DNA of 64,000 nucleotides from a virus. The notes under the pieces were generated by a model, which ran no database searches, was not told the origin of the DNA, and was given only the letters and a program-made list of their open reading frames with translations. A program made the position numbers and the translations under genes. This document shows, piece after piece, positions 3,877 through 64,000 of the stretch (position 1 is its first letter; the number at the start of each line of letters is the position of its first letter). The DNA lies in the IMG/VR virus record IMGVR_UViG_3300043179_000057, positions 1,601 through 65,600 of that record; one strand, given 5' to 3'.

Positions 3877-3902
3877 CCTAGGAGCGGCTCGTGGTGTAGC
3901 TT
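3873..3902 (+). promoter_or_regulatory. Putative sigma70 promoter, leaderless
   Basis: TTGACC-18nt-TAGCTT; ATG 3909 follows the -10 by 6 nt, with no RBS. Confidence 0.55.
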
Positions 3903-27623: not shown

Positions 27624-27910
27624 TGGCCAGGGCGAGCGCGGGGCCGGTCTCCGGCCTCAGGAGCGGCGACCGGGTGCGCACCGTCCAGCAGGTGCACGAC
27701 ATCTCCTGGGCCTTCCCGGTCCCGGCCGGGTCCGTAGGGCGCCTGGGCTCCCTCTACCGCGTCCAGGACGGCCTGGAGGTCTGGCAGATGTTCCTGGACC
27801 GGGCCACGGGGGCAAGTCCATGCTCTGAGTCGCCCACACGCACGTCGAGAGGCTTGACGACGACGGCGCCCCGGAGTAGGGTGAGGGCGTGTCGAAGTTC
27901 CTGGACGTGA
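27623..27910 (+). CDS. Hypothetical protein, SH3-like N-terminus; 3' end uncertain
   Basis: LRSGDRVRTV…VPAGSVGRL. Confidence 0.45.
   Translation: MARASAGPVSGLRSGDRVRTVQQVHDISWAFPVPAGSVGRLGSLYRVQDGLEVWQMFLDRATGASPCSESPTRTSRGLTTTAPRSRVRACRSSWT
27854..27882 (+). promoter_or_regulatory. Putative sigma70 promoter, leaderless
   Basis: TTGACG-17nt-TAGGGT; GTG 27889 follows by 6 nt. Confidence 0.6.
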
Positions 27911-49780: not shown

Positions 49781-50821
49781 CTACCCCTTCGACTTCTGGA
49801 CGTACCCCAGCTCGCTCAGGGCGGTCTTGAGCTTCGCCCGGACCGCCATGAAGGCCGGGGCGTTCACCGGGGGCGAGGAGCTTCCCACCGCCGTGATGAC
49901 GGTCAGTTGCGCGCAGGCGTCGATCAGCTCCTCCATCAGGGACACCAGCGTGTCGCCCAGCACCATCTTCTCTTTGGCGCCGGCCCCCACCTTGACCTGG
50001 CCCCCGGGGGCGCTCAGCGTCACGTTCTTCTTGGCGGCCTTGACCAGGACGCCGTCCTCGGCCGCCTCTACGGTCACCCCCTTGGCGGTGACGGTGGCGC
50101 CCCCGACCACGGTCACGTTCAGGGCCTTGTCGGCGTCCAGGGAGACCTGGCGGTTGTGGTGGTCGAGCACCAGCCTCTGGAGTGGGCGTTCGTCGTTCTC
50201 GTCCTTCGCCTCGAAGGTGCCGATGGCGATGCCGCCGTTGGCGCCGAAGCGGATGAAGGCGCCGACGGCGTCGGGCTTGACCTTATTTTCATCCAGCTTG
50301 CCGTCGGCGTCGGTCGGACCCTTACGCAGCACCTTCAGGGCGCCGCTGTCGTCGATCTCGACGTTGAGCCCGTTGAACTCCAGCTCCAGGAAGTGTCCGC
50401 GCTCCTTGGCGGCCCCCTTCGCCTCGGATTCGTCCCTCTGGTCGCGGATGCCCCCCAGGATGACCGGGTTGGCCCTCTCTCCGTTGATGCAGAGCAACAG
50501 GACCTTCGAGCCCTTCGCCGGCCGGCCCTTCTGGCCCGCCTGCTGGTCCCCCCGCAGCGTCCACGTGGCGCGGTCCACGAACCCGCCGAGGGGGTTCCAC
50601 AGGCAGCAGCCGACGTACTCCTTGGTGACCGCCGTCTTGTTGGCTCGGTGCCGCACCAGAACGCGGTACTCGATGAACCGCTTGGTCTGGCTGCGGGGGT
50701 CCTCGGGGTAGACCAGCTCCAGGACCTCGCCCACGCGCAGCGAGACGTCCCCGAAGGCGCCGCCGTCGTCTGTCGGCTCTCCGCCCACCTGGCGGATGTT
50801 GAAGAACGAGGGTACGATCAC
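49781..50821 (-). CDS. Baseplate central spike (gp5/gpV-like)
   Basis: N-terminal OB-like region (GEVLE…GSKVLLLCINGERANPVILGGI); beta-strand repeats; LVSLMEELIDAC…TAVG. Confidence 0.72.
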   Translation of the reverse strand: MIVPSFFNIRQVGGEPTDDGGAFGDVSLRVGEVLELVYPEDPRSQTKRFIEYRVLVRHRANKTAVTKEYVGCCLWNPLGGFVDRATWTLRGDQQAGQKGRPAKGSKVLLLCINGERANPVILGGIRDQRDESEAKGAAKERGHFLELEFNGLNVEIDDSGALKVLRKGPTDADGKLDENKVKPDAVGAFIRFGANGGIAIGTFEAKDENDERPLQRLVLDHHNRQVSLDADKALNVTVVGGATVTAKGVTVEAAEDGVLVKAAKKNVTLSAPGGQVKVGAGAKEKMVLGDTLVSLMEELIDACAQLTVITAVGSSSPPVNAPAFMAVRAKLKTALSELGYVQKSKG

Positions 50822-52671
50822 TACTCAGACTCCTCGCGCTTGCGCTCGTTCTCACGGCGGCGATGGGCCGCCCTCTCGTCGGACGAGATTCCGGGGTCGG
50901 CGGCGCCGGTCGAGTCGCGTCCGCTGACCACGTTCGGGTACACCGGGGCCATCTTGGACGAGATGGGCTCCAGGCCGTTGGACAGGTCGATCACGGTGCG
51001 CCAGCGGCGCTTGCCCGAGGCGATGTCCTGTACGCAGGTGTCGGTCAGGCCCTCGATGTGGTACACGACCCGGTCGAGCTGCAGGTTGTCGCCCTCCGAG
51101 ATGGGGGCCTGGATGCCGAAGGCCTCCACCCGTCCGTTGAGGGTCAGATGCGACCCCATCGACCAGTCGGCTATGAGGCGCATCCACTTGCCCGGCGTCC
51201 GGTCGTGGGTGTCGTCCACGGCGCAGTCCACCGTGGACATGTACGACCGCAGGCCGGAGCGCTGGATGTCGAGGTCGTCCCGGATCGGGGGGTGCTGCGC
51301 GATCTGGTTGGTTATGCTGTTGGAGAAGGCGTACTCCTTGCCGACCCCGTAAACGTGGACGAAGTTGATGCGCGTAGCGTCAGAGCGACCCAGGTCCTCC
51401 GACAGGACAAGCTGGGCGGGGAGCCGCCATCGGGGGAGGTTCAGGAACCTGGTGACGTGGCGGACCCCCTCCTGGTCGGTCTCGGCGTCCACGACGAAGG
51501 CGTCGGTGGTGAACGGGATCTGGCGCATCACCACCGTGGGGACGACGCTGCCCTCGGGGTTCACCCTCATGCACGAGAACAGCTCGTTGATGGACGGGTT
51601 CAGGTACTGCTGCAGAACCCCCCACAGCGGCTTGTTCACCAGGGTGGGGAAGAAGGGGTAGAAGGTCCCCAGCATGGGCGCCCTGGTGACGCGCCTCTGC
51701 GGCGTGCTCTTGTCGTTGTCCAGGTTGGAGGGCGCGAAGGCCGAGAGGTCGTTCTTCTTGTCGGCGTAGGTCTGGACGCCCTGCTGGACCTCCAGGACCT
51801 CCGCGTACGACAGGTATCCTCGGCTGCTGTCCTTGCCCAGGAGGTCCCCCACCGCCCTGGGCACGAGGTAGGCGTTCGGGGCGCCCTTCTCGGTCCCGCC
51901 TCCGTGGACGGCGGCGATGCCCTGGGCCACCGCCGGGTTGGATGTCTCTCCGGACACCCCGGTCCCCACTATCAGGTCGATGATGCGCGGGATCATCTTG
52001 TTGACGTTTCCGTCGATCGGGTCCTTGCTCTTGGGGTCGAAGAAGGCGTCGGCGTCCACGCCGATGCGTGCGAGCCACTGCCCCACGTTCTGCTTCAGGA
52101 CATCCAGGGTACCGACTGCGAAGTCGTAGAATATCTGGGTGTCCAGCTCCGCCATGCCCATCCCCTGGAGGGTGTAGGTGAGGTGGCGCTGGCCGCTGTC
52201 AGCGTCCACCAGGAGCTGCTTGCGGATCTGGTGCACCCGCCCCACGAACTTGAGCCCGTCCTTCGCCCCGTTGCAGGGCTCGCCCTTGTTGATGCGGTCC
52301 AGCAGAGACAGGAAGTCCGCCTCGTTGTTCACCATCCACGCGAGCAGCCAGTCCCCGGGCTGGACCTCCTTGAGGTAGTCTATGCCGTCCGACCTCTTGA
52401 GGGCGGCGGACAGGTTCTTCACGTGGGAGCGCTTGTGCCTCTCGACCGTCAGGCTGATGCAGTCTGAGGCGATGACGAGGGTGTTCTTCGAGCCCTCGCG
52501 CGGACGCACGCCGTCCACCGGGTCCACCGAGAAGCTGGCCCCCTTGCTGCGGTCGAAGCTGATCGGCTCCCCGAGCCGGACCACGGCCAGCACCCAGTGC
52601 GGGCTGGACGAGACCGCCTCGCCCTCGCCCGCCCCGTAGTCGAGGAGGAGGTCGTAGGTGGGGGCCGCCAT
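50821..52671 (-). CDS. Baseplate hub (gp27-like)
   Basis: Lies between the tape measure and spike genes; TLNGRV…ISEGDNLQLDRVVYHIEG. Confidence 0.65.
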   Translation of the reverse strand: MAAPTYDLLLDYGAGEGEAVSSSPHWVLAVVRLGEPISFDRSKGASFSVDPVDGVRPREGSKNTLVIASDCISLTVERHKRSHVKNLSAALKRSDGIDYLKEVQPGDWLLAWMVNNEADFLSLLDRINKGEPCNGAKDGLKFVGRVHQIRKQLLVDADSGQRHLTYTLQGMGMAELDTQIFYDFAVGTLDVLKQNVGQWLARIGVDADAFFDPKSKDPIDGNVNKMIPRIIDLIVGTGVSGETSNPAVAQGIAAVHGGGTEKGAPNAYLVPRAVGDLLGKDSSRGYLSYAEVLEVQQGVQTYADKKNDLSAFAPSNLDNDKSTPQRRVTRAPMLGTFYPFFPTLVNKPLWGVLQQYLNPSINELFSCMRVNPEGSVVPTVVMRQIPFTTDAFVVDAETDQEGVRHVTRFLNLPRWRLPAQLVLSEDLGRSDATRINFVHVYGVGKEYAFSNSITNQIAQHPPIRDDLDIQRSGLRSYMSTVDCAVDDTHDRTPGKWMRLIADWSMGSHLTLNGRVEAFGIQAPISEGDNLQLDRVVYHIEGLTDTCVQDIASGKRRWRTVIDLSNGLEPISSKMAPVYPNVVSGRDSTGAADPGISSDERAAHRRRENERKREESE

Positions 52672-52672
52672 G

Positions 52673-55621
52673 CTACGGCCCGACCTTGATGAGGGAGGTG
52701 ACCCGGCCTATCTTCTCCGTGTGCGCCTGGAGGGCCCGGGTGAAGCCGGTCAGGGCGTTCTCCCAGCTCGCCTGCATGGCCGCCACGTTGGCCCCGCCGC
52801 GGTCCCCCGCGGTCACGTTCTTGAGCATGGCCTGCAGCTCGATAGACACCTTGGCCATGGCCTGGGCCGCCGCGACGACGTCCTTGCCCATGCCGCCGCC
52901 GCGCAGCTCGCCCTCGCGTTGGCTGGCCTCGGAGATGCCCGCCCCGATCCCGCGCTCGCGGGCCTTCCTCGACACGCCGGACGTGGCGCCTCCGCCCACC
53001 AGCTCGGGGCTCAGGCCCTTGTCCCCGGCTACCTGAACCTCCAGGAGGCCCTCGGCCTCGTCCACCGTCATGCCGAGGTTCCGTCCGAGGATGCTGCCCA
53101 CCGACCGCAGCTCGGGGCGGTAGATGTCCTGGGCCTGGCGCCGCATGTGGGCCAGCTCCTTGTTCTCGCGGGCGGACCGCTTACCCTTGCCGGCCAGCTC
53201 GTCCATCCGGTCGATGTCGAAGTTCCGCTCCTTGAGGAGGTGGCGGACGAACGCGGGGGCGTCGCCCCCCGCCTCGGAGAAGCCCTGCATGGTCTTGGCT
53301 ATCGCGCTACCGGGCTTGAACTGCTTCGACATCACGCCGACCCGGGCCGACGAGAAGCCCTGCTGGATGAACGACTGGAGGTCGCCCTTCTCCAGGCCCA
53401 TGCGCTTCATCTCGTCCGGGACGTTGCCGGTGCGCATGACCTCCAGCATCGCCGCCGGGGTCATGTCCTGCATGGCCTGCCAGGCGTAGGACCCGGCGTT
53501 CGGTGCCGCCCGTCGGGCGGCCATGTACATGAGCGCCTGGTGGAGGTTGTCGGTCTTGCCCCCGAACAGGCGCCCGGTTGCTCCCATGCCCTCAGTCAGG
53601 ATGCGGGCCTGGCGCTGCTCCATGCCGGAGGTGATCTCCCCGGGCTTGATGGCCGGGGTGTAGGCGGCCGAGGTGAGGGCGCGTATGGACTCGGCCCCCG
53701 TGAACTGGCCCACGTCCCCCGGGCCGGGCCCGAAGCCGCCCATGAGCTGCTGCATCACGGGGTTGGCGAGCTGCCGGCCGGCGGCGATCTCTAGTCCGCC
53801 CTGGCCCATGCCGATCGAGCGCTGCAGCGCCTCCAGGGCCGGAGGCAGCCTGCCGCGGGCCAGGGGCCCCCCGAACTGCGCCATGGTGCCAAACATCTCG
53901 TTGACGTTGTAGAGGCCGCCCTGCTGCATCCCGAGCAGCCTTGGTCCGTACCCCACAAACCGCTCGCCCGCGGCGCTCCGGACCGCCGCCCTGGCGCCCA
54001 CGTACTCGCTGACGTCATACCCGGCCGCCTCGGCCTGCACCTTAAGGCGGTCGAGGTCGGACATCGGGGGGCCGCCCTTCCTGGCGACCACCTCCCCGGA
54101 GATGCGGCCGGCACGCATCATGGCCATGCGGCCGAAGGCATCACTGGTCATCCGCTCCATGAGGGCGGTCTGGAGCGGGTTCTCCTGGACCTTGAGGTCC
54201 ACCCACTTCTTGAACCGCTCAGCGGCCTCGGGGCCCATGTTGCGCAGCGAGCGCTCGAAGTCGATGTCCTGCGGCAGCCTGGTGGACTCCTCGATCGTCT
54301 TGGGCTCGGCCTGGCGAGAGTGCGTCCTCGCGGGCGGCGCCTTGGCCGCCTGGAAAAACCCGCCCGGCGCCGACTCGTCCAACGTGAGCATCTCCATGGC
54401 CTCGGGGGACAGCGGCTGCCCCAGGGTCCCGAGGAACTGTCCCATCTTCTGCTTGACCCGGGTAGCGACCTGCTTGACTCCCACGGCCCCGCCAGGCGCG
54501 GTCGTCTTGCCCGTGAACTGGCTGTCGAAGGTAGGCAGGCCGGCCCTCTTAGCCGCCACCTCCTCGCGGCGCTGCCACTGCACCACGTCGGCCATGTCCT
54601 TGATGAAGTTCGGGTCCTTGCGCAGCGACATCAGGGCGCCCGCTCGGGCGGCGTCGCGGCCGAACAGGACCTGGGCCCCGAGGCCTCCTATGGCGGCCCC
54701 GGTGCGGGCCGACTTCTCGATCCCGTACATCGGCTGGCGCAGGGCCTCCTCGGTGTTTGCCAGCGCGTTGCTCTTGAGGGCCTCCGAGCCCCAGTCGTAC
54801 GCCTTGTAGGCCGCGTACCCGACGCCGAGGGGGATGCCGTACCGGGCGACCGCGGCGCCCACGCCGAACGGCAGCTTCTCCTCAAGGAAGGCCCCTACGC
54901 CTCCCCCCGCGCCTCCCCGACCTCCGCCAGCCCCGCGCCCGCCGCCGCCCGCCGCCGCAGCCGCCCCCGGAGGGGCCAGGAAGGGCTCGTTGGGCAGCGT
55001 GGTGTAGTCGCCCGCCCCCGGCCTGGGGGGGCCACCCCGACCCCTGATCGCGATCGAGCGCGTCGTCTCGGCCACCAGCTCCTGTAGGGAGGGGGCCTCT
55101 ATAGGAGCCCGGGCCGCCCCCCGCATGGCTGCGGGCGCCTGACCAGGAAGGCTGCCCATGGTGTCCTTGACCGCGGCCAGCTCCTTGACCAGGTTGCGAA
55201 CATCGTCGGTCAGGCGCTGAACGCCAACCCCCATCTGGTCCAGGGGGGCTCTGGCAGCCTGAGCGGTCGCCTGCAGCTCGCTCCGGATGGTCGAAAAGGA
55301 ACCCTTGACGCCATCGGACCCGCCTTTGAAGACGCTAATCAGGCTCTGTCCCAGCCTCAGCAGGGAGTCGGTCACTCCTCCGCCCAGACGCGCCGTCTGC
55401 TGGGCGGCCTGGAAGCCAGCGGTGGGGGCCGCCCCCGGGGTAGTGGAGACCTGGAAGGGCGCGGCCCCGAGGCCCCCCGCCCCGCCCAGCCCGAGCTGGA
55501 CGCGGGAGAAGGTCTCGACCAGCTTCTGGGCGTCGCTGATCAGCTCCCGGATCGTGTTCTGCGCCTTGCGGGCGGAGACCTCGTCTACGACGAGCTTTAT
55601 GCTTACGGTCTTCTCTGCCAC
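52673..55621 (-). CDS. Tape measure protein
   Basis: 982 aa, Ala/Gly-rich and helical; follows two small chaperone-like genes and precedes the hub. Confidence 0.72.
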   Translation of the reverse strand: MAEKTVSIKLVVDEVSARKAQNTIRELISDAQKLVETFSRVQLGLGGAGGLGAAPFQVSTTPGAAPTAGFQAAQQTARLGGGVTDSLLRLGQSLISVFKGGSDGVKGSFSTIRSELQATAQAARAPLDQMGVGVQRLTDDVRNLVKELAAVKDTMGSLPGQAPAAMRGAARAPIEAPSLQELVAETTRSIAIRGRGGPPRPGAGDYTTLPNEPFLAPPGAAAAAGGGGRGAGGGRGGAGGGVGAFLEEKLPFGVGAAVARYGIPLGVGYAAYKAYDWGSEALKSNALANTEEALRQPMYGIEKSARTGAAIGGLGAQVLFGRDAARAGALMSLRKDPNFIKDMADVVQWQRREEVAAKRAGLPTFDSQFTGKTTAPGGAVGVKQVATRVKQKMGQFLGTLGQPLSPEAMEMLTLDESAPGGFFQAAKAPPARTHSRQAEPKTIEESTRLPQDIDFERSLRNMGPEAAERFKKWVDLKVQENPLQTALMERMTSDAFGRMAMMRAGRISGEVVARKGGPPMSDLDRLKVQAEAAGYDVSEYVGARAAVRSAAGERFVGYGPRLLGMQQGGLYNVNEMFGTMAQFGGPLARGRLPPALEALQRSIGMGQGGLEIAAGRQLANPVMQQLMGGFGPGPGDVGQFTGAESIRALTSAAYTPAIKPGEITSGMEQRQARILTEGMGATGRLFGGKTDNLHQALMYMAARRAAPNAGSYAWQAMQDMTPAAMLEVMRTGNVPDEMKRMGLEKGDLQSFIQQGFSSARVGVMSKQFKPGSAIAKTMQGFSEAGGDAPAFVRHLLKERNFDIDRMDELAGKGKRSARENKELAHMRRQAQDIYRPELRSVGSILGRNLGMTVDEAEGLLEVQVAGDKGLSPELVGGGATSGVSRKARERGIGAGISEASQREGELRGGGMGKDVVAAAQAMAKVSIELQAMLKNVTAGDRGGANVAAMQASWENALTGFTRALQAHTEKIGRVTSLIKVGP

Positions 55622-55636
55622 GGGCGCCCTACCCGG

Positions 55637-56128
55637 CTACGAAGATTGGCCCCGGTGGTACTCTAGCGCATCGCGTTCAAGGTCGTCCACCGGGAAGGTC
55701 ATGTGGACGTCCGGCGGCAGCTCGACCGCCGTCCTGGGGGCCGGGTCCGAGGGGATGACCGTCTTCTCCTTTTCGGCGGCCTCCTCCGCCTCGACCTCCC
55801 GGCGGTACTGCTCGGCGTCTGCGTCGGCCGCGTCCTCCTCCCAGCGGGCCCGGCGCAGCTCCTCCTCCGTCATGGACAGGCGGCGCCGCTCGGCGTCGAG
55901 GCGGGCGGGGTCGTCCTTGGCCAGGGCCTCGTAGTGGTCCTCGTAGTAGTGCCGCAGCACGTCCTCCAGGGGCAGGTCGTCCACCTGGTGGAGCGGGGTG
56001 TGGTACTTCTCCGAGTACCAGCGGTGGATGCCCCGCAGGACGTACTCCGGGTCCTGCTTGGCCTCCGGGTCCTGGCCCCGCAGGACGTCCGCCAGGGCCC
56101 GGGTCTGGATGGCCCGGAACTCGTCCAA
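55637..56128 (-). CDS. Tail assembly chaperone, second ORF
   Basis: RWYSEKYHTPLHQVDDLPLEDVLRHYYE; in frame with the upstream ORF. Confidence 0.65.
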   Translation of the reverse strand: MDEFRAIQTRALADVLRGQDPEAKQDPEYVLRGIHRWYSEKYHTPLHQVDDLPLEDVLRHYYEDHYEALAKDDPARLDAERRRLSMTEEELRRARWEEDAADADAEQYRREVEAEEAAEKEKTVIPSDPAPRTAVELPPDVHMTFPVDDLERDALEYHRGQSS

Positions 56129-56134
56129 CGGGGG

Positions 56135-56560
56135 CTACCCCGCCGCTGGGGCCTTGGCCTCGGCCTTCTTGAGGTCGGCCTGGGCCTCCTCGGCCTGCTT
56201 CCTGATCTTCTCCTGGCGCCGCTTCTCGGGGGCCATGGCCTTGTCGTACACCTCGGAGACGATCGAGTCGTCCTCCAGGTCCATGCCGTTGCCGTTGTCG
56301 GTCCACCAGGACGGCGCCGAGACGACGCGCACCGCGAGCTGGCTGAACACCTCGGCCATCACGATCGACCGGTCGCTCGGGCGGGGCCCGCCGTCGGCGC
56401 CCCCGAGAAGCTCCCGGCGGATGCGGTCCTGGGTCAGGCGGTCGCGGTGCGACAGCCTGGTCTTGACCTTGAACACCCCCTTGCGGGTCTCCTCGGTGGT
56501 CTCGCCCTTCGCGGAGACCACGAACTCCTCCACCCCGACGTCCGCTCCCTGCTCTGCCAT
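56135..56560 (-). CDS. Tail assembly chaperone, first ORF
   Basis: Canonical position two genes upstream of the tape measure; 141 aa. Confidence 0.65.
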   Translation of the reverse strand: MAEQGADVGVEEFVVSAKGETTEETRKGVFKVKTRLSHRDRLTQDRIRRELLGGADGGPRPSDRSIVMAEVFSQLAVRVVSAPSWWTDNGNGMDLEDDSIVSEVYDKAMAPEKRRQEKIRKQAEEAQADLKKAEAKAPAAG

Positions 56561-56597
56561 CCTGCCCTCCGTTGTTGTATCTTACCAGAACCGGCGG

Positions 56598-56605
56598 TAA
56601 GATTA
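56598..56605 (-). promoter_or_regulatory. Late-promoter variant TAATCTTA
   Basis: Heads the - strand tail block. Confidence 0.5.
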
Positions 56606-56628
56606 TTTTCGGCCTTTGCTGTTTTTTG

Positions 56629-56657
56629 TTGACACCAGAAACCACCAGAGTTAGGAT
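56629..56657 (+). promoter_or_regulatory. Strong sigma70 early promoter, leaderless
   Basis: TTGACA-17nt-TAGGAT with a T-rich UP-like tract; ATG 56664 follows by 6 nt. Confidence 0.8.
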
Positions 56658-56663
56658 AGCCGT

Positions 56664-57320
56664 ATGACAAACACCACCTACGAAACAGCGACGGGGAGGA
56701 GCTGGGCCTACCACGGCGGCCTGAGGCACGTCTTCGGGTACCGAGGCTCCATCTGCGGGGAGGCTCCGAAGGCCGACGAGGGGTCGGACGGACCCACGTG
56801 CGGGAGGTGCGTCGAGCTGTCCGGGGCCGGCGACTACATCCTCAAGGCGCGCGAGGGGGCCGCCCGCCGGTACCGCTTCCCAACGCTGTGCATCCACGGC
56901 GCGGGGTGCGGCGGCTACGTGAGCTTCTCGTGGGACGGAGAGACGATCCGGCGCCCGGACGTGACGCTCCACCTCGCCCTCATCCAGTACGGGCACACCG
57001 TCATGGGCGGGTGCGACAACTCGCCCCCCACCCACGCCTGCGACTGCGAGGAGCGGCTGGCCGAGCTGGGGGACCCGCTGGCCGCGGTCGGGGTCGAGAG
57101 CGACACCGGCTGGGTCGGCGCCCGGGGCGGGCGCTGCATCACGGACTACGCCCGGACCGTCCAGTTCGTCCGCCCGCCCACCGGCGACGAGCTGGACCAG
57201 GTCAAGGAGTACCTGATCCGCAAGAACTGCCCCGGCTGGACCCCCCTCGCCTGCGTCGAGGACCCGTTCTCCGGCGGGACCAAGTTCTGCTTCAAGACCA
57301 CGATGGACTCGTCCGACTGA
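56664..57320 (+). CDS. Early hypothetical protein, apparently two-domain and Cys-rich
   Basis: 218 aa; CG…CGRC N-terminal part; VESDTGW…NCPGWT…TTMDSSD C-terminal part. Confidence 0.75.
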   Translation: MTNTTYETATGRSWAYHGGLRHVFGYRGSICGEAPKADEGSDGPTCGRCVELSGAGDYILKAREGAARRYRFPTLCIHGAGCGGYVSFSWDGETIRRPDVTLHLALIQYGHTVMGGCDNSPPTHACDCEERLAELGDPLAAVGVESDTGWVGARGGRCITDYARTVQFVRPPTGDELDQVKEYLIRKNCPGWTPLACVEDPFSGGTKFCFKTTMDSSD

Positions 57321-57351
57321 GGAAGCCCACACCCAAAGAGGAGGATACCCT

Positions 57352-57807
57352 ATGGCCGAAAAGACGATCGAGGAGCTTCAGGGCCTGAGCGTCGAGGAGG
57401 TGCGAGGTCTGGGGGCGGAGGATGCCGAGGCGCTGTGGGGGTGGGCCGTGCCCCGCCTCGCCTTCCACGCGGAGGAGGCCGCCCACCACCGAGAGGAGTT
57501 CGTGCGCCACGTCCAGGAGAGGGACCGTCTTCGCAAGCTGGTGCGCGCCGCCAAGCCGAGGCCACCCCGCCCCGCCCAGCCCACCCGCGCCACCGACCTC
57601 GTCGGCCGCGTGTACGGGCGGCTCACCATCGTCTCCCGGGCCCCGGGCAAGTACCAGAACAAGGTGCCGCTGTGGAACGCTGCGTGCCTGTGCGGGCGCG
57701 AGAAGGTGGTCAACAGCAAGGCGCTCAAGGCGGGCGACTCCAGGTCCTGCGGGTGCCTCTCGGGGCGGGTTCCGCCCCTCAACCCGATCAACGAGGCGGC
57801 GCTCTGA
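57352..57807 (+). CDS. Protein with the zinc module typical of HNH/AP2 homing endonucleases, but no nuclease domain
   Basis: DLVGRVYGRLTIV…WNAACLCG…LKAGDSRSCGCL. Confidence 0.7.
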   Translation: MAEKTIEELQGLSVEEVRGLGAEDAEALWGWAVPRLAFHAEEAAHHREEFVRHVQERDRLRKLVRAAKPRPPRPAQPTRATDLVGRVYGRLTIVSRAPGKYQNKVPLWNAACLCGREKVVNSKALKAGDSRSCGCLSGRVPPLNPINEAAL

Positions 57808-58025
57808 TGGCCTCCCAGGTCCGCAGGTGGGGAGAGATGCACTACGTCGTGGTGCACTGCTCCCGCAAGGGGTGCGACATGACGTGGAAGTCCAGCTACT
57901 TCCAGAGCCGGAAGGAGGCGGAGACCTACGGGGACGGGCTGCCGGCCCGGCCCAGGTGCCTCGCCCATGACCGAAAAAGGCGCTTGACGACGAAGAACGA
58001 AAACGCTACAGTGGAGGAACCATGA
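57807..58025 (+). CDS. Hypothetical protein
   Basis: TGATG overlap; 72 aa. Confidence 0.5.
   Translation: MASQVRRWGEMHYVVVHCSRKGCDMTWKSSYFQSRKEAETYGDGLPARPRCLAHDRKRRLTTKNENATVEEP
57984..58012 (+). promoter_or_regulatory. Putative sigma70 promoter
   Basis: TTGACG-17nt-TACAGT upstream of ATG 58022. Confidence 0.6.
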
Positions 58026-59062
58026 GCACCACGAAACGAGAGCACGCGTTGAGGGCCGAACGGAACAAGGCCCTGCTGGCCGAGAACGCCATTGCCCGTC
58101 TCGAAGGTGAGGTCACTGCCCTGAAAGAGCAGGTAAATCTGGAGCACGCCATACGGGTTGGGGACGCCGAGGGGTTCGGAGAGCGTATCCTGTCCCTGGA
58201 GGCAGACGCCGGTGTCGGATTGAGCGGCCACCTCTACGTCCTGGACGCCACCAACCTGGCGTACCGGTACTTCCACGCCTACGAGTACGTGCACTGCGGA
58301 GCCGTCTACGGCATGCTGCGGGCCCTGTCCCGGGTGCGCCAGGCCGCCCCGACCCACGCCTGCGCCGTCCTGGACGGGCCCGGCCCCACCTTCCGCCACC
58401 GGCTGCTGCCGTCCTACAAGAGCGGCCGGCCGCCGCGCCCGGAGGCGCTCGCGCGCCAGGACGGCCTGCTGCTGGAGGCCTTTTCCGCCCACGGGGTGCC
58501 CGCCCTGACCTCCGAGGGGGTGGAGGCGGACGACCTGGCGGCGGCTCTATGCGGAAACGCGCTGCGCGAGGGGATGGAGGTGACGGTCGTGTCGGCCGAC
58601 AAGGACCTGACCCAGCTCATGGCCAGCCCGGGGGTCCGGGTGATCAACCCGGCGGGGTGGGAGGAGGTCGCCCCCGAGGACGTGGAGCGGCGCCTGGGGG
58701 TGCCCCCGCGCCTGGTGGGCGATCTGCTGGCCCTGGCGGGGGACCCGGGGGACGGCGTCCCGGGCGTCCCCGGGATCGGCCCCAAGACGGCCGCCGCCCT
58801 GCTCACGCGGGCGGGCTCCCTGGAGGCGCTGCGCGACTCCGCCCACCTGGTCCGCGGCAAGCGGGGGGAGGCACTGCGCAAGTCGATGGCCGACGGGTCC
58901 CTGGAGCTGTCCCGGGTCCTGGTCGGGCTCGACTCGGACGCCTCCGTCCCCGGCATGGGGGAGCTAAGGCTGCCCCCGCCCGACCACCGGGCCGTTCGGG
59001 CCCTGTGCCTCAGGCTGGGGTTCCGGGACCTGGCCCCGCCGGACTGGCCGGAGGGCTTCTGA
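58022..59062 (+). CDS. 5'-3' exonuclease / flap endonuclease (PolA N-terminal-like) with an N-terminal coiled coil
   Basis: VLDATNLAYR, RHRLLPSYKSGR, GVEADD, SADKDLTQL, GDPGDGVPGVPGIGPKTA. Confidence 0.92.
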   Translation: MSTTKREHALRAERNKALLAENAIARLEGEVTALKEQVNLEHAIRVGDAEGFGERILSLEADAGVGLSGHLYVLDATNLAYRYFHAYEYVHCGAVYGMLRALSRVRQAAPTHACAVLDGPGPTFRHRLLPSYKSGRPPRPEALARQDGLLLEAFSAHGVPALTSEGVEADDLAAALCGNALREGMEVTVVSADKDLTQLMASPGVRVINPAGWEEVAPEDVERRLGVPPRLVGDLLALAGDPGDGVPGVPGIGPKTAAALLTRAGSLEALRDSAHLVRGKRGEALRKSMADGSLELSRVLVGLDSDASVPGMGELRLPPPDHRAVRALCLRLGFRDLAPPDWPEGF

Positions 59063-59071
59063 GGGCGGGCC

Positions 59072-59100
59072 TTGACGGACGCCCCGGTCTGGCGGATTAT
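59072..59100 (+). promoter_or_regulatory. Putative sigma70 promoter, leaderless
   Basis: TTGACG-17nt-GATTAT; ATG 59108 follows by 7 nt. Confidence 0.5.
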
Positions 59101-59107
59101 GGCCTGG

Positions 59108-59335
59108 ATGCCAAGCGAGACGAAGCTGACGAGCCAGGGGGTGAGGGACCTCAACCTGGTGGGCGCCAGGACGAGGCGGCCCTCCCCGCCCCCCGAGGAG
59201 GCCTGCGCCCACCCGTTCAACTACACCCAGAAAGAGGACGGCTACAAGCCGGGGGTCGGCCCCTTCGTCTCCCGCGTGACCAGGTGCGCCAGGTGCGGGG
59301 TCGTACTCAAGGACGACCCGATCGTGTGGTGGTAA
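59108..59335 (+). CDS. Small zinc-finger-like protein
   Basis: CAH…CARCG. Confidence 0.55.
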   Translation: MPSETKLTSQGVRDLNLVGARTRRPSPPPEEACAHPFNYTQKEDGYKPGVGPFVSRVTRCARCGVVLKDDPIVWW

Positions 59336-59336
59336 G

Positions 59337-59513
59337 GTGCCCCCCCACGAGGCGCCGTGCTACCTGTGCGCAAGGAACCGGGTGCCGGTACGCCAGGACC
59401 GGACGCCGGTGTGCGAGACCTGCGAGGAGCGCCACCTCCAGCCGGCGGCGCCCGATCGGGAGATCAAGGACGACCGCACCCCCCCGATGGGGACGAGGCG
59501 CTACGGGACGTGA
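59337..59513 (+). CDS. Small CxxC-CxxC protein (not in the ORF track)
   Basis: GTG 59337: PPHEAPCYLCARNR…VCETCEERH; stop overlaps the next GTG. Confidence 0.55.
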   Translation: MPPHEAPCYLCARNRVPVRQDRTPVCETCEERHLQPAAPDREIKDDRTPPMGTRRYGT

Positions 59514-59692
59514 GCGCCGAGGCGTGGTTCTTCGCGGTGCAGGTAGACAACGGGCGCTGCGGCCACTGCGGGGAGGGCAAGGACCCGCTGGAGGTGTGCC
59601 TGATGGACGCGAAGCTCCAGAGGGAGCACCATCGGGGCTGCCTGGTCTGCGCCGAGTGCCGGAGGCGCCAGGAGCGGGAGTACGGGCCGTGA
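59510..59692 (+). CDS. Small CxxC-CxxC protein
   Basis: SAEAWFFAVQVDNGRCGHCG…CLVCAEC; GTGA overlaps. Confidence 0.55.
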   Translation: MSAEAWFFAVQVDNGRCGHCGEGKDPLEVCLMDAKLQREHHRGCLVCAECRRRQEREYGP

Positions 59693-60153
59693 TGATTGGG
59701 TACGTGCACTCGGATGACACAGTCAATGTGTGGGGACCGCATGGGGTCGAGCGGATGTCGCGAGAGAGATTCCTCCTCATGAAGGCGGGAATCTCTCCGC
59801 TCAGACCTCACGCCGAGCAAGGACACGCCGAGCGGGTGGTGGCCCGCGCCATAGAGCGGGACCGCCCACGGGCGGAGATGGTCGCACGAGAGCCGAGACA
59901 CACGGTCTCGGTCATGAACGTGATATCGAAGGACCCTCCCGCAAGGTCGCGATGCGAGATTTGTGACCATGAGTTCTGCCCGCTACCGAAGGCGCCGGCT
60001 AGCTGGTCAGACGGCCCTCGCCGTCACGAGGATGACGATGCCGTAGACCTGCAGCCGTACCTATGTAGCGAGTGCCTCAATCCGAAGCCACCCCAGATGA
60101 GGCCAAGACGCCCCTGGTGGCTGCCGGCGGTCAGGCTCCTGGCCAGGATATGA
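59689..60153 (+). CDS. Hypothetical protein with CxxC pairs
   Basis: CEICDHEFC…LCSEC. Confidence 0.55.
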   Translation: MMIGYVHSDDTVNVWGPHGVERMSRERFLLMKAGISPLRPHAEQGHAERVVARAIERDRPRAEMVAREPRHTVSVMNVISKDPPARSRCEICDHEFCPLPKAPASWSDGPRRHEDDDAVDLQPYLCSECLNPKPPQMRPRRPWWLPAVRLLARI

Positions 60154-60293
60154 GCTGGCTCCTGGATCGCTACGTGCTCGACTGGTGGTCCCTCGTCCAC
60201 CTCCTCGGGTGGGCGGCCCTGGGGGCCGCCCTGGCCATCCGCATGCGGGGGCGCGGTACGTCGTCGAGGTGGCCAAGAACGCCCGCCGGGTGA
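60150..60293 (+). pseudogene. Truncated membrane protein
   Basis: LDWWSLVHLLGWAALGAALAI hydrophobic start, then an abrupt change of sequence character. Confidence 0.4.
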
Positions 60294-60577
60294 GGTTCCC
60301 GGGCGAGGGGACGCACGCCCCGGTGCCGGCCGAAGCCGCCGGCCAGGACGTCCCCCTGGTCAACGCGCCGCAGATCGACGTGTCCGAGCTGGGGTCCTGC
60401 CTGGCCAACGGGGAGCCCTTCGCGGTCGCCTGGTGGCAGCGCGCCGACGGGATGTTCGTGTACAGCCTGAGGTCCCAGGAGCCTAGCAAGGTGGACGTAT
60501 CCGCCGTCGCCAAGGCGTTCGGCGGCGGGGGCCACGCCCGCGCCGCCGGGTTCCAGGTCCGCGAGCTGCTCTTCTAG
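60269..60577 (+). CDS. Isolated DHHA1 domain (C-terminal part of a DHH phosphoesterase)
   Basis: VYSLRS…VDVSAVAKAFGGGGHARAAGF; no DHH domain upstream. Confidence 0.65.
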   Translation: MAKNARRVRFPGEGTHAPVPAEAAGQDVPLVNAPQIDVSELGSCLANGEPFAVAWWQRADGMFVYSLRSQEPSKVDVSAVAKAFGGGGHARAAGFQVRELLF

Positions 60578-60579
60578 CC

Positions 60580-60705
60580 CTACCAGGGCCCGAGGGCCGG
60601 GGGCCGGAGGCGTCGCTCGACGCGCAGGACGAGGTCTAGCAGGCGCAGCAGCGGCACGGCCACCGCCCACCTGAAGAGCCAGTGCGCCGCCCTGCGCACG
60701 CGCAC
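60580..60705 (-). CDS. Small hydrophobic/basic peptide
   Basis: RVRRAAHWLFRWAVAVPLLRLLDLVLR; 41 aa. Confidence 0.4.
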   Translation of the reverse strand: MRVRRAAHWLFRWAVAVPLLRLLDLVLRVERRLRPPALGPW

Positions 60706-60707
60706 GC

Positions 60708-61037
60708 CTACCTGGAGCAGGTCCCGCAGGGGCCGGGCCGGTACTGGTGCCCCACGCCGGCCCTCTCCCTGGCGGGGGCCGCCCTCCTGCAGGCCTCGCG
60801 GCCCCAGCCACAGGTGCGGCAGGACTGCCTGGAGCCGGCGCAGCGCCGGCACGAGGGGGCGGTGGGGGTGCGGACCGGGTCCGGAGGGGAGGGCGCGGGC
60901 GCCTCGGGGGCCGCGACGACCCCCTCCACGGCGGCCGGGGGCGGATCGGTCGGTTCGGCTACGGGATCGGTCGGTTGTCGGTCGATCCCCTCGGGGGCCA
61001 CGGAGGCCCCCTCCGCCCTCTTCCTCCGCCTCCCCAC
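60708..61037 (-). CDS. Pro-rich protein with C-terminal CxxC motifs
   Basis: 109 aa; CRRC, CRTC, CGTC. Confidence 0.5.
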   Translation of the reverse strand: MGRRRKRAEGASVAPEGIDRQPTDPVAEPTDPPPAAVEGVVAAPEAPAPSPPDPVRTPTAPSCRRCAGSRQSCRTCGWGREACRRAAPARERAGVGHQYRPGPCGTCSR

Positions 61038-61049
61038 GTCCTACGCCCC

Positions 61050-61211
61050 CTAGCCCCGGCGGCGCCAGCGGGCCCAGCGCGGCGACTTGATGCCTGCGAC
61101 CATGCAGGACGCCCACCAGAGGCCGAACGAGGCCAGGTCGGCGACGTCGGTCGCGAGCGCCAGCGGCCACGCGGCCAGCAGGCGGGACTTCTTGATGATG
61201 TGGTGCAACAT
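61050..61211 (-). CDS. Small hydrophobic protein, 53 aa
   Basis: ATG 61211 with RBS GGAGG, downstream of a late motif. Confidence 0.5.
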   Translation of the reverse strand: MLHHIIKKSRLLAAWPLALATDVADLASFGLWWASCMVAGIKSPRWARWRRRG

Positions 61212-61226
61212 TTCTTACCTCCAGGG

Positions 61227-61235
61227 TAAGATTGC
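61227..61235 (-). promoter_or_regulatory. Putative late promoter GCAATCTTA
   Basis: Same motif as in the tail module. Confidence 0.6.
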
Positions 61236-61245
61236 CCCCGAGGGC

Positions 61246-61274
61246 TTGACCGGGCGGGCCCGGAGGGGTACGGT
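61246..61274 (+). promoter_or_regulatory. Putative sigma70 promoter, leaderless
   Basis: TTGACC-17nt-TACGGT; ATG 61281 follows by 6 nt. Confidence 0.65.
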
Positions 61275-61280
61275 GTGCCC

Positions 61281-61703
61281 ATGGGCGACAAAGCGACGAG
61301 GCGTATCCTGCTCCTGAACGCGGCCGGGCTCCTGGGCCTGGCGGTGGCGGCTCTCTACGGGGTGCCGCAGAGCGTGTTCGTGAACGACTCCAGCCACGTG
61401 ACCGTGTTCATCGCCGCGGCTTTCCTGTTCGCGATGCAGCGCGTCTTCACCCGCGACACCAGGACCGCCCGCCAGGTGGCGTCCCTGCTGGTCATGCTCG
61501 GCCTGATAGGGACCACGATCGGGGCCTCGGGCGCGTTCCTCGCCCTGGACCCCACCACGTTCACCGACCCGGCCAAGGGGGCCGCCTCGGTGGCCGCGGC
61601 CCTGCACGAGTTCGGGACGGGCATCGTCTGCACGATCCTCGGCTCCGTGACCAACGTGTGGACCACGGTGTGCTGCATGGTGGCGGAGAGGGGCGACGCT
61701 TGA
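61281..61703 (+). CDS. MotA/TolQ/ExbB proton-channel-like membrane protein
   Basis: Four hydrophobic segments; VMLGLIGTTIG and GTGIVCTILG match the conserved C-terminal TM pair. Confidence 0.7.
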   Translation: MGDKATRRILLLNAAGLLGLAVAALYGVPQSVFVNDSSHVTVFIAAAFLFAMQRVFTRDTRTARQVASLLVMLGLIGTTIGASGAFLALDPTTFTDPAKGAASVAAALHEFGTGIVCTILGSVTNVWTTVCCMVAERGDA

Positions 61704-62347
61704 CCCGCCAGGGGGCCGATCGAGGGGAGGGGCACCAGGACGACTTCCAGGTCGTCTTCCGCGACCTGCTGATGCTCCTGATCACCGGCCTGGTGGTCCT
61801 CCTGGGCGTGACGATCATGTACATGGGGGCCAAGGCCAGCCAGGCGGCCCAGGCGCCCCCCGTGGGCAACGTCGTGGTGGACGTGCAGTGGCACCAGGGG
61901 GTGGACGCGGACGTGGACCTGTGGGTCCAGGGGCCGGGGGACAGCCGGCCGGTGGGCTACTCCAACCGAGGAGGCGAGACCATGAACCTGCTGCGCGACG
62001 ACGTGGGCTGGAACGGGGACCCGGGCGTCCTGAACTACGAGGACTCCGTCAGCCGGGGGGTCGTCCCCGGCAGGTACGTGGTGAACCTCCACGCGTACGG
62101 GCCGGACTCGGAGCTGGTGTACCCCCTGGAGGCCGACGTCAAGGTGCTGTGCGTGGCCCCCAAGGCCGGCCTCCGGGAGGTCCTCAGGAGGCGGGTCTCC
62201 CTGGACCAGGTCGGGAGGGAGGTCACGGTCGCCAGCTTCGATCTGGACAATCAGTGCGGCCTGGTCCCCGGCTCCCTGAGCGAGGACTACGTGCCGCTGC
62301 GCGGCGCCTGGACCGACCCAGGCCAGCCGCAGGAGGATGAGCGATGA
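61700..62347 (+). CDS. Single-TM partner with an intramembrane Asp and a YfaP/DUF2135-like periplasmic domain
   Basis: FRDLLMLLITGLVVLLG; DADVDLWV..P, LLRDDVG, NYE, PGRYVVNLHAY. Confidence 0.65.
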   Translation: MTRQGADRGEGHQDDFQVVFRDLLMLLITGLVVLLGVTIMYMGAKASQAAQAPPVGNVVVDVQWHQGVDADVDLWVQGPGDSRPVGYSNRGGETMNLLRDDVGWNGDPGVLNYEDSVSRGVVPGRYVVNLHAYGPDSELVYPLEADVKVLCVAPKAGLREVLRRRVSLDQVGREVTVASFDLDNQCGLVPGSLSEDYVPLRGAWTDPGQPQEDER

Positions 62348-62841
62348 GCCTGTGGGTGTTCGTCCCGTGCCTGATCGCGGCCCTGCTGGCCGGGTACTGG
62401 ACGGCGAGGGGCCGCGTGGCCGTCCTGGCCTTCGTCCTCGGGGGCGCGCTGGCCCTCGCCGCCTCCGTGTCCTTCCTGGGCCGCCCCAAGCCCACGCAGT
62501 GGGCCATCCTGGAGCGACCGGTGAAGGAGGCCTCGGTCCTGTACTTCTGGGTCGAGCCCGAGCGCCAGATCCTCCTGCTCCTGACCTGGCCGGGCCAGGA
62601 CGAGCCGCGCCTGTACTCCAGGCCGTGGGACGAGGAGCTGGCCAAGAGGCTGAGGGAGGCCAGGGCCGAGGCCGGGAAGTCCAGGCGCCCGGTCGTCATG
62701 CGCAGGCCGTTCGACGGGGCCCGCCTAGCCCCCGGGGGCGGCGGGTCGGGGCGTGGCGACCAGACCATGGACAACGCCGGGGCCGCCTCTCGGGTGCACG
62801 TGGCCCCGCCCCCGCCCCTCCCGGTGAAGGGTCCGTCGTGA
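62344..62841 (+). CDS. Membrane protein (two N-terminal TMs)
   Basis: ATGA-coupled; SFLGRPKP…PRLYSRPWDEELAKRL. Confidence 0.7.
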   Translation: MSLWVFVPCLIAALLAGYWTARGRVAVLAFVLGGALALAASVSFLGRPKPTQWAILERPVKEASVLYFWVEPERQILLLLTWPGQDEPRLYSRPWDEELAKRLREARAEAGKSRRPVVMRRPFDGARLAPGGGGSGRGDQTMDNAGAASRVHVAPPPPLPVKGPS

Positions 62842-62974
62842 CCGAGCTGCTCGCCTTCGCCGGGGACCACCCCTCGTGTTCTGCTTCAGCCTGTGGGTGC
62901 TGGCGCACGCTACGGCGTACGCGGCGGCCCGCTTCAGGCCGATCGTGGTCACCATCAACAGGACCAAGCCGTGA
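62838..62974 (+). pseudogene. Small membrane protein with an apparent 1-nt deletion
   Basis: One extra C in CACCCCTC gives TELLAFAGDHPLVFCFSLWVLAHATAYAAARF…KP-stop, overlapping the next GTG. Confidence 0.5.
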
Positions 62975-63258
62975 ACCGTAGGGGCCTCCTCGGGGCGCTC
63001 CTAGCCTTCCCGGTCCTGCGGGCCGCCGCTCCGGCAGCCGCGGTCGTCACGGGCCTGTTCGCGCCCCGCGGTGGCGTCCAGGACCTCGTGATGGCGCTGG
63101 AGGCCGGGTCGTACGCCGGGCCGCTCGTCTCGGGCCAGGCCCTCCAGATCGAGGACCTGTCGCCGGTCATGCGTGTCGTGACCTTCGAGGATAGGAAGCT
63201 CAGGCTGCTCCCCAGGCTGGCCGACGCCGGGTGGCGCTTCACGAGGACGTTCACGTGA
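62971..63258 (+). CDS. Twin-arginine-signal microprotein with a capsid-N-terminus-like segment
   Basis: NRRGLLGALLA; DLVMALEAGSY…GQALQIEDLSPVMRVVTFEDRKLRL. Confidence 0.6.
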   Translation: MNRRGLLGALLAFPVLRAAAPAAAVVTGLFAPRGGVQDLVMALEAGSYAGPLVSGQALQIEDLSPVMRVVTFEDRKLRLLPRLADAGWRFTRTFT

Positions 63259-63467
63259 GACCGCCGGTGGACTACCTCGACCCGACGGCGCACCGCTACC
63301 TGGACGGACTGGCGGGCTGCCGGGAGTGCGGCCGCCAGGAGGAGGCGCACCGGCCCGGCGCGCCCGACGACCCCGCCAACTGTTCGAGCGCGTCGAAGAG
63401 TTCTAGGAGCGCCGGGAGCAGCCGTGGGCGGCGTGATCCCCCAGTGCCGGTACGTGCTCCCGTATGA
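63255..63467 (+). CDS. Small hypothetical protein (CxxC..H)
   Basis: GTGA overlap; CRECGRQEEAH. Confidence 0.4.
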   Translation: MRPPVDYLDPTAHRYLDGLAGCRECGRQEEAHRPGAPDDPANCSSASKSSRSAGSSRGRRDPPVPVRAPV

Positions 63468-63756
63468 CGAGGCGTCATACAACAACTGCCGTCGCGCCGA
63501 CGGCCACCGAGGCCGCCACCTGACCCACGGGGAACGGATGAGGGACCCCGCCCCGAGACGGGACGCCCGGGTCAAAGGGCCGCCCATCGAGCCCCCGCGC
63601 GTAATCGAGGCGATCAGCGTCCCGACCCGCAAGCAGTTGACCCACATCGAAAGGGCCCTGAGGGGCTCCCGAGGGAGGGCGGCGGCCATGAAGGCTTGGT
63701 TCGCCGTTCTTCAGATGATGAAGCCGGCAGTCGTCTGTCGCGAGGAGTACCTGTGA
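63424..63756 (+). CDS. Hypothetical protein
   Basis: 110 aa; C…CRRADGHRGRH. Confidence 0.5.
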   Translation: MGGVIPQCRYVLPYDEASYNNCRRADGHRGRHLTHGERMRDPAPRRDARVKGPPIEPPRVIEAISVPTRKQLTHIERALRGSRGRAAAMKAWFAVLQMMKPAVVCREEYL

Positions 63757-63950
63757 CCTGGCGCCACGTCCCCGTATCGTCTCCCAAACTCACCCCCGGG
63801 CGGTGGACCTGCACGGTGGACGAGGTCCGGAGGCTGGGGCCGTTCGTGACGCGCAACACCTGCGGCGTGCGGCACGTGAAGGAGGGCGCCGCCCGCCGGC
63901 ACGCCGAGAGGCTGAACAGGGATCGCATGGTCCCGCTGGAGGGGGCGTGA
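63753..63950 (+). CDS. Small hypothetical protein
   Basis: GTGA overlap; WTC…TCGVRH…AARRHAERLN. Confidence 0.5.
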   Translation: MTWRHVPVSSPKLTPGRWTCTVDEVRRLGPFVTRNTCGVRHVKEGAARRHAERLNRDRMVPLEGA

Positions 63951-64000
63951 GGGTTATACAGAGCGTCAAGAGGTGGGCACAGGGCAGGCTGGACCGCCCG

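Follow-up and report, generated by a model that had tools for sequence, protein, structure and literature searches.

Why would a bacteriophage carry what look like the parts of an ion-driven membrane motor? The question is raised by three overlapping membrane-protein genes, here called g1, g2 and g3, at positions 61246-62841 on the plus strand of a 64,000-nucleotide (nt) stretch of viral DNA. This whole stretch, hereafter the window, comprises positions 1,601 to 65,600 of the IMG/VR record IMGVR_UViG_3300043179_000057, an 81-kb virus fragment (~49% complete) from a freshwater metagenome. Our analyses suggested that the trio is probably, if not with full confidence, an uncharacterised proton-driven inner-membrane motor of the 5:2 type, a branch of the MotA/ExbB motors, with a periplasmic output, and that it serves the phage as an accessory module. 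The reading of a proton-driven 5:2 machine is based on the homology of g1 and on a conserved Asp in g2.

Co-inheritance of the three genes

The three genes are one co-inherited unit. A g2 homologue was present on 55 IMG/VR contigs; 52 of these have g1 upstream of it and 54 have g3 downstream, each time on the strand of g2, and the exceptions to a complete trio are mostly at contig ends. In one-genome-per-species collections of bacteria, at least 586 stretches encode g2, mostly in Alphaproteobacteria; the carriers include Azospirillum, Skermanella, Geminicoccaceae, Stellaceae and Pelagibacterales. Neighbourhoods were counted in the best 80 of these loci: 76 contained the g1 model and 70 the g3 model, with g1 directly upstream of g2 in 63. 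Co-occurrence of the genes had been proposed as a check in a preliminary description of the locus, and the order was indeed recovered on both the viral and the bacterial side. No other conserved neighbour family was found in the bacterial loci; an apparent fourth one was ruled out, being g3 merged with spurious frames of high guanine-cytosine (GC) content. In phages, the sole recurrent neighbours were the families at the positions of the 16-3 genes p036 (annotated as a protease) and p044 (annotated as a DNA repair exonuclease), each found in 16 of 59 phage loci.

Cultured phages with the trio are rhizobiophages only (29 records) and fall into several lineages: the 16-3-like group (~60 kb), the RHph_N3_13-like group (68 kb), the P10VF-like myoviruses (156 kb), RHph_N34-like phages (154 kb) and RHph_I1_18 (171 kb). 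In the phage studied here, as in P10VF, RHph_N3_19 and 16-3, the trio stands beside exonuclease, topoisomerase, sigma-factor or endonuclease genes. Inserts within the trio were also seen. In Sinorhizobium phage NV1.1.1 a NUMOD3 homing-endonuclease gene separates the g1 and g2 homologues (L001:2168-2905), and other viral contigs hold inserts of 0.5-1 kb inside the trio, made up of homing endonucleases or small open reading frames (ORFs). A marine alphaproteobacterial contig (L005:6001-7380) has, besides a complete trio, an orphan g2 paralogue 3 kb away from it, whose neighbours are a TPR protein and DsbA.

Four trio-bearing bacterial genomes encode 4-7 MotA_ExbB paralogues each, and the g1 of the trio is among the weaker scorers; the 3-6 further paralogues include some above 100 bits. 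The presence of many stronger paralogues in the same genomes indicates that the trio is a system additional to the Tol and Ton motors and not one of these.

The preliminary description had also taken the cassette to be phage-borne, which agrees with the origin of the record and with its relatives. The nearest cultured relative is Myxococcus phage Mx1 (helicase 34% identity, E value (E) 4e-79), which was also the sole match for a structural ORF. This likeness suggests, as far as sequence can indicate it, that the host is a myxobacterium or another bacterium of similarly high GC content. The Mx1 genome was found to have no g2 and no MotA_ExbB gene, so the trio is an accessory module in this phage. 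Its absence from Mx1, together with the bacterial, mostly alphaproteobacterial, origin of the g2 homologues nearest in sequence (45-49% identity), would also fit a passenger: a bacterial envelope-maintenance system copied by horizontal transfer, without a role in infection and perhaps decaying. We regard this as very improbable. The three frames are intact, their overlaps are as in the orthologues, and every invariant residue is kept; moreover, the trio persists in unrelated phage lineages of very different GC content, with genomes of 59 to 171 kb. A shortened g1 is a derived feature common to the phage copies, which points to long residence in phages under selection.

The channel subunit and its two partners

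First, judged by its sequence relatives, g1 is a member of the MotA/ExbB/TolQ superfamily. This follows from the matches of its orthologues and of their profile: 42 of the 46 phage orthologues match the Pfam family MotA_ExbB (PF01618) at E ≤ 0.01 (best E 5.5e-10), and the orthologue profile matches solved chains of ZorA (E 4e-7), MotA (E 5.9e-7), PomA (E 1.6e-4) and TolQ (E 2e-4), and ExbB weakly. All of these solved ZorA, MotA, PomA and TolQ matches are pentamers in their entries. The profile match covers the two channel helices, where T80 and T120 of g1 align with the IGT and TT motifs. In addition, the orthologue of RHph_I1_18 passes the PF01618 cut-off with 26.8 bits, and BLASTP between g1 and a bacterial PF01618 neighbour gave E 1e-9. 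The GLIGT and T-x-x-G motifs are kept across 46 sequences, with G76, G79 and G83 invariant and T120 and G123 at least 90% conserved. In the same sequences, the distribution of Lys and Arg against Asp and Glu indicates a four-helix, MotA-type topology with the N-terminus inside.

In MotA, ExbB and TolQ, the loop between helices 2 and 3 builds a large cytoplasmic domain. In g1 this loop has ~9 residues, and among the orthologues it reaches up to ~70 residues, a span which implies that the cytoplasmic part is dispensable. The C-terminus of g1 lies 6 residues past the last helix. Bacterial copies have 200-245 amino acids (aa), so that the copy in the window is at the minimal end of the size range. 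The minimal MotA/TolQ/ExbB-like subunit of the preliminary description is therefore upheld by the Pfam matches of the orthologues and by the profile matches to solved relatives.

A bare channel core without a cytoplasmic domain is what a dominant-negative subunit might look like, and jamming of the host Ton, Tol or Agl motors had been put forward at the outset. The phage subunits would then act as decoys or poisons, entering the host's Tol, Ton, Agl or Zorya motors or competing with them, and the outcome would be an altered envelope, a block on the entry of other phages or a disarmed MotA-type defence. That the g1 profile has its best solved matches in ZorA chains would suit this idea, as would a nearest cultured relative that infects Myxococcus, which uses AglRQS and Tol/Ton motors. 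A decoy, however, needs one subunit, whereas phages and bacteria alike retain the three genes together in almost all copies, and g2 and g3 resemble no host partner. The matches of PADLOC ZorA are insignificant (E 0.02). Full trios are also stable chromosomal modules in 586+ bacterial species, beside 3-6 other MotA/ExbB paralogues, which argues for an autonomous ancestral machine and not a decoy subunit. The jamming proposal is weakened by these complete chromosomal trios in hundreds of bacteria, and we consider it quite improbable.

Second, g2 has the build of the single-pass partner of such a motor. It consists of an acidic N-terminal tail, an FRDLL motif at residues 20-24, a helix, a short linker and a periplasmic beta-sandwich at 57-182; its AlphaFold model, with a predicted local distance difference test (pLDDT) score of 84, likewise has one long helix (12-51), a short linker and that same sandwich. 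F20-R21-D22 stands at the start of the membrane helix and is invariant in all 45 g2 homologues; of the 55 viral copies, with identities down to ~25%, 54 retain the Asp. The homologue search reached E 1e-48, far beyond chance. The single transmembrane helix bearing an Asp, as first described, is borne out.

The head of g2 is of another kind than those of the known partners. Judged by the predicted model, it clearly shares the beta-sandwich fold of DUF2135/YfaP and TerD. In the fold search against AFDB the top clusters were DUF2135 proteins (E 2.8e-11), several at a root-mean-square deviation (rmsd) of 2.4-3.0 Å, and ESM Atlas clusters in which 72-100% of the members carry PF09906, including one named 'YfaP family', matched over 119-129 residues at 2.5-3.1 Å. 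The best solved match was TerD, a sandwich that binds calcium (VIA Z 8.4 over 136 residues, also Z 7.7; E 2.4e-4 with Foldseek). Fold searches thus returned TerD and DUF2135, not the ExbD or OmpA fold. On the sequence side, Pfam DUF2135 (PF09906) gave no match to g2 at E ≤ 1 and faint matches to 4 of the 45 homologues at E ≤ 10 (best 0.01), and TerD (PF02342) gave no sequence match to g2. A YfaP/DUF2135-like head had been proposed from the start; the fold bears this out, while Pfam does not find it in g2. The accompanying claim that the head is neither OmpA-like nor ExbD-like agrees with the family searches given below. The motifs DxDVDLW, LLRDDxG (both rich in Asp) and NYE are invariant, and together with the fold they suggest that the head may bind a metal, probably calcium.

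Third, g3 is anchored by a helical hairpin. Its helices span residues 3-17 and 24-44, with an Arg/Lys-rich turn between them; across 45 sequences the turn has a mean of 2.4 Lys/Arg against 0.04 at the N-terminus, which puts the turn on the cytoplasmic side and the soluble domain on the periplasmic side of the membrane. In the model (pLDDT 83), there is a compact alpha/beta domain at ~60-125 with pLDDT above 90 and a returning strand at 150-153, and the C-terminal tail is Pro-rich, with a short PPPPLP only. Pfam gave nothing on g3 but a chance-level GspH match, and the family is without a Pfam or PHROG family. Against PDB folds there was no convincing match, the best for the soluble part being the eIF5A N-domain (Z 5.6); there were TOBE-like hints at a template modelling (TM) score of ~0.35. 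The g3 family comprises 3335 clusters at 50% identity (E ≤ 0.001). The preliminary description had called g3 a protein with two transmembrane helices and a soluble domain, and both parts are seen in the model. It had added that g3 could be the TonB/TolA-like transducer; position and topology favour this, the two helices and the lack of a TonB_C or TolA fold do not. As a member of the TonB or TolA families g3 was ruled out, having two helices, no TonB_C or TolA domain by Pfam and no such match in PDB.

An all-viral ESM Atlas cluster (297 aa), with Phage_lysozyme in 100% of its members, matches the g3 model over 121 residues (TM 0.54, rmsd 3.6 Å). A fusion of g3 with lysozyme was not found among the top 150 g3 representatives, in cultured phages or in BFVD. 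Signal-anchor-release endolysins, which the lysozyme match recalls, respond to loss of membrane potential. The trio might then be a gated ion channel and not a motor, in which g1 and g2 conduct protons so as to lower or sense the membrane potential and g3 is a regulator; it could time lysis, slow host metabolism or trigger the release of a membrane-tethered wall hydrolase. Besides the structural match to a lysozyme-fused fold, the idea draws on the conserved core, which consists of the channel helices and the Asp, with the torque-type cytoplasmic interface absent. Nevertheless, we find it unlikely. The trio lies beside early or middle genes, not lysis genes, in every phage examined, and free-living bacteria are not expected to keep a depolarising device on the chromosome. 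Furthermore, the two periplasmic domains are well folded and conserved, which suggests that the output is mechanical or one of binding, and not conductance alone.

Organization and setting of the locus

The coordinates of the cassette and of its surroundings are collected in Table 1. The start of g2 is a TTG within a TTGA that also contains the g1 stop, the start of g3 overlaps the g2 end via ATGA, and a GGAG-type ribosome site, as read from the sequence, lies 6 nt 5' of both g2 and g3. These overlaps and ribosome sites are those of three translationally coupled genes, as first described. The GC content of the cassette is ~72%, similar to the remainder of the window.

Table 1. Coordinates of the trio, its candidate control elements and other ORFs mentioned in the text.
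Feature	Position	Strand	Remarks
Candidate sigma-70-type promoter	61246..61274	+	-35 TTGACC 61246-61251, 17-nt spacer, -10 TACGGT 61269-61274
g1	61281..61703	+	ORF, channel-type subunit; 140 aa from ATG, or 142 aa from GTG 61275
g2	61700..62347	+	ORF, single-pass partner; 215 aa
g3	62344..62841	+	ORF, two-helix hairpin, periplasmic domain and Pro-rich tail; 165 aa
Weak terminator-like hairpin	62861..62886	+	5 pairs only, then T-rich run; 20 nt past g3 stop
TTGAC-N17-19-TANNNT motifs	3873-3902, 27854-27882, 56629-56657, 57984-58012, 61246-61274	+	Start codon 6-9 nt later
Divergent hydrophobic ORF	61050-61211	-	53 aa; GGAGG site 6 nt 5' of its ATG
Hydrophobic ORF just past g3	62876-62974	+	32 aa
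ORF with twin-arginine-like leader	62971-63258	+	GTGA overlap with the preceding ORF
ORF with partial DHH phosphoesterase match	60185-60577	+	130 aa
ORF with Mx1 match	18740-20278	+	34% identity
ORF with Mx1 match	50821-52671	-	32% identity

The ATG of g1 at 61281 follows the -10 element after 6 nt, which gives a leaderless layout. The window contains six copies of the pattern TTGAC-N17-19-TANNNT; five are on the plus strand, and behind each of these five an ORF of 74-346 aa begins with ATG or GTG. Mononucleotide shuffles gave 0.02 such motif-to-start-codon arrangements against the 5 in the window, and a related promoter pattern gave 11 matches against 2.4 expected from dinucleotide-preserving shuffles. 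Because the layout recurs in this way, a leaderless promoter is plausible for the cassette, and so is a family of such promoters in the phage. The claim of a leaderless sigma70 promoter made in the preliminary description is thus favoured by recurrence but not by the strict consensus promoter scan, which did not call the candidate at its thresholds. A GGAGG also lies 8 nt 5' of the GTG at 61275, and a leadered start there may be the alternative to the leaderless one.

The divergent ORF upstream shares a 63-bp intergenic region with the candidate promoter. As this small membrane ORF starts from 61211 with a GGAGG of its own, the cassette opens a new plus-strand unit. The hairpin behind g3 may or may not end the cassette transcript, with small plus-strand ORFs downstream of it. 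The two ORFs that follow g3 are not conserved with the trio at other loci.

The trio is placed among DNA-metabolism genes, namely those of a 5'-3' exonuclease and a DHH phosphoesterase, and no lysis genes are adjacent. The DHH-type ORF matches only the C-terminal part (208-284 of 363) of the corresponding PHROG; the N-terminal part is possibly in another frame, or missing. The phage also encodes ribonucleotide reductase, a DnaB-like helicase, a UvsX-like recombinase and myovirus tail genes. Megablast of positions 55000-64000 of the window against phages found no DNA match. Among sequencing runs, this DNA was found in one only, a freshwater metagenome that is likely to be its source and comprises no RNA.

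A proposed motor and its place among known systems

The trio can be compared with each of the known systems that it resembles. Like ExbB-ExbD-TonB and TolQ-TolR-TolA, it comprises three adjacent genes for a channel subunit, an Asp-bearing single-pass partner and an anchored periplasmic protein with a Pro-rich stretch, and the profile match of g1 extends to TolQ and, weakly, to ExbB. The acidic N-terminal tail of g2 is a further likeness, since that of Escherichia coli ExbD is acidic too. Unlike the Ton and Tol subunits, g1 is a four-helix protein arranged like MotA, with hardly any cytoplasmic domain. The g2 head differs from those of ExbD and TolR in being a sandwich of the DUF2135/TerD type, and g3 differs from TonB and TolA in being a two-helix hairpin with a small beta domain; in addition, no gene for a TonB-dependent receptor or for Pal or TolB is linked to the trio.

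With MotA-MotB and PomA-PomB the trio has in common a four-helix A subunit of the same inferred topology, matched by the MotA and PomA chains over helices 3-4, and a B-type partner with one helix and an Asp. Unlike these flagellar stators, it lacks the torque-generating cytoplasmic domain, the plug and the OmpA-like peptidoglycan-binding domain, it has a third obligatory gene, and it shows no link to flagellar genes. ZorA-ZorB is similar in that ZorA was the best solved match of the g1 profile, including a periplasmic loop of similar length between the channel helices. The long ZorA tail and ZorC, ZorD and ZorE are nonetheless missing, the g2 head is not OmpA-like, and the trio occurs in phages as well as in cells. 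Membership of Zorya was ruled out, with PADLOC ZorA at E 0.02-0.14, the very short tail of g1 and no conserved effector gene nearby.

The g2 head is like YfaP/DUF2135 and TerD in its fold, but it is predicted to be periplasmic whereas TerD is cytoplasmic, and unlike the known DUF2135 proteins, which are tails of VIT/vWA, TPR or LysM proteins, it would partner a MotA-type channel. Scans of g2 and g3 with Pfam, PHROGs, NCBIfam and PADLOC gave nothing significant. A 2025 survey of MotAB relatives groups non-flagellar homologues of unknown function as 'generic ion transporters' with assorted DUF appendages, and the trio is not described in it (PMC12505986).

We infer the stoichiometry, the proton drive, the contacts of g3 and the biological role by analogy with these relatives. 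In the motor that we propose, g1 would form a pentameric ring, as in every solved relative, with two g2 helices in its centre. Asp22 would take up protons from the periplasm and release them, and this cycling would move the ring relative to g2. As g1 is virtually without a cytoplasmic domain, work would be delivered in the plane of the membrane or in the periplasm. The g2 heads, of the DUF2135/TerD type and probably calcium-binding, would sit just above the ring on a linker of ~10 residues. The g3 hairpin would be tethered probably outside the ring, as TonB and TolA are, and would carry the output domain and the Pro-rich tail toward a target in the envelope or cell wall, making g3 the likely moving or transmitting part. 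By analogy, g3 is likely to correspond to TonB/TolA in role while being unrelated in fold. DUF2135 clusters with LysM exist in the ESM Atlas, which we counted toward a periplasmic output. While the phage infects, the trio would probably work on the envelope of its host, with superinfection exclusion and wall remodelling as examples of such a task, and not in lysis.

Several results weigh against a proton-driven 5:2 motor. The match of g1 itself to PF01618 is weak (E 0.003, 17.7 bits, below the cut-off of 22.9), and the 16-3-like group has Asn at the Thr position of GLIGT. One viral g2, on the IMG/VR contig L113 (5013-5663), has FRG in place of FRD and is the sole viral copy without the Asp. 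Neither ExbD/TolR (PF02472) nor OmpA-like families matched g2 or any of its 45 homologues at E ≤ 10, and the g2 profile matched no B subunit (ExbD, TolR, MotB or ZorB) among solved structures; the likeness of g2 to a B subunit is one of position, one helix and one Asp. The complex prediction for four copies of g1 with two of g2 (residues 1-60), a copy ratio that differs from the native 5:2, scored 0.03, which speaks neither for an assembly nor against one. Finally, the g3-lysozyme fusion may be a lead pointing to the cell wall, as a moderate structural match that is unconfirmed by sequence.

A more specific form of the motor reading is tentative, and we hold it to be doubtful in its full extent. 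The trio would be the smallest self-sufficient 5:2 rotary motor, a pentamer without a cytoplasmic domain that turns around a DUF2135-headed dimer and drags the g3 adaptor, which would bear lysozyme in some phages. It would be expressed early for proton-powered work on the wall or envelope, such as the exclusion of later phages, and Alphaproteobacteria would possess, in the chromosomal copies, a third envelope motor that has escaped recognition, in addition to Tol and Ton.

Literature searches on DUF2135, YfaP, phage ExbB-like proteins and proton channels of Rhizobium phages found nothing relevant to the trio, and a virus that brings its own membrane motor was not found in the literature searched. 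The retention of the whole trio by several unrelated phage lineages implies an advantage for a virus in having a membrane motor of its own. The family is a large one of thousands of clusters, and Pfam has no entry for g2 or g3. To it this locus adds a trio in an Mx1-like phage of 70% GC, far from the rhizobiophages, as well as a g1 of minimal size and the recurrent leaderless promoter layout. Since hosts and phages that can be cultivated carry the trio (Azospirillum, Skermanella, Sinorhizobium phage 16-3 and Rhizobium phages), it is directly testable. Ion-driven 5:2 motors are few, comprising flagellar stators, Ton, Tol, the motors of gliding and of type IX secretion (T9SS), and Zorya, and each was a major discovery. 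The trio would add a 5:2 branch with a bare-channel A subunit, a new type of B-subunit head and a new type of third partner, and its bare-channel g1 would lend itself, as a minimal system, to the study of how movement arises from ion flow.

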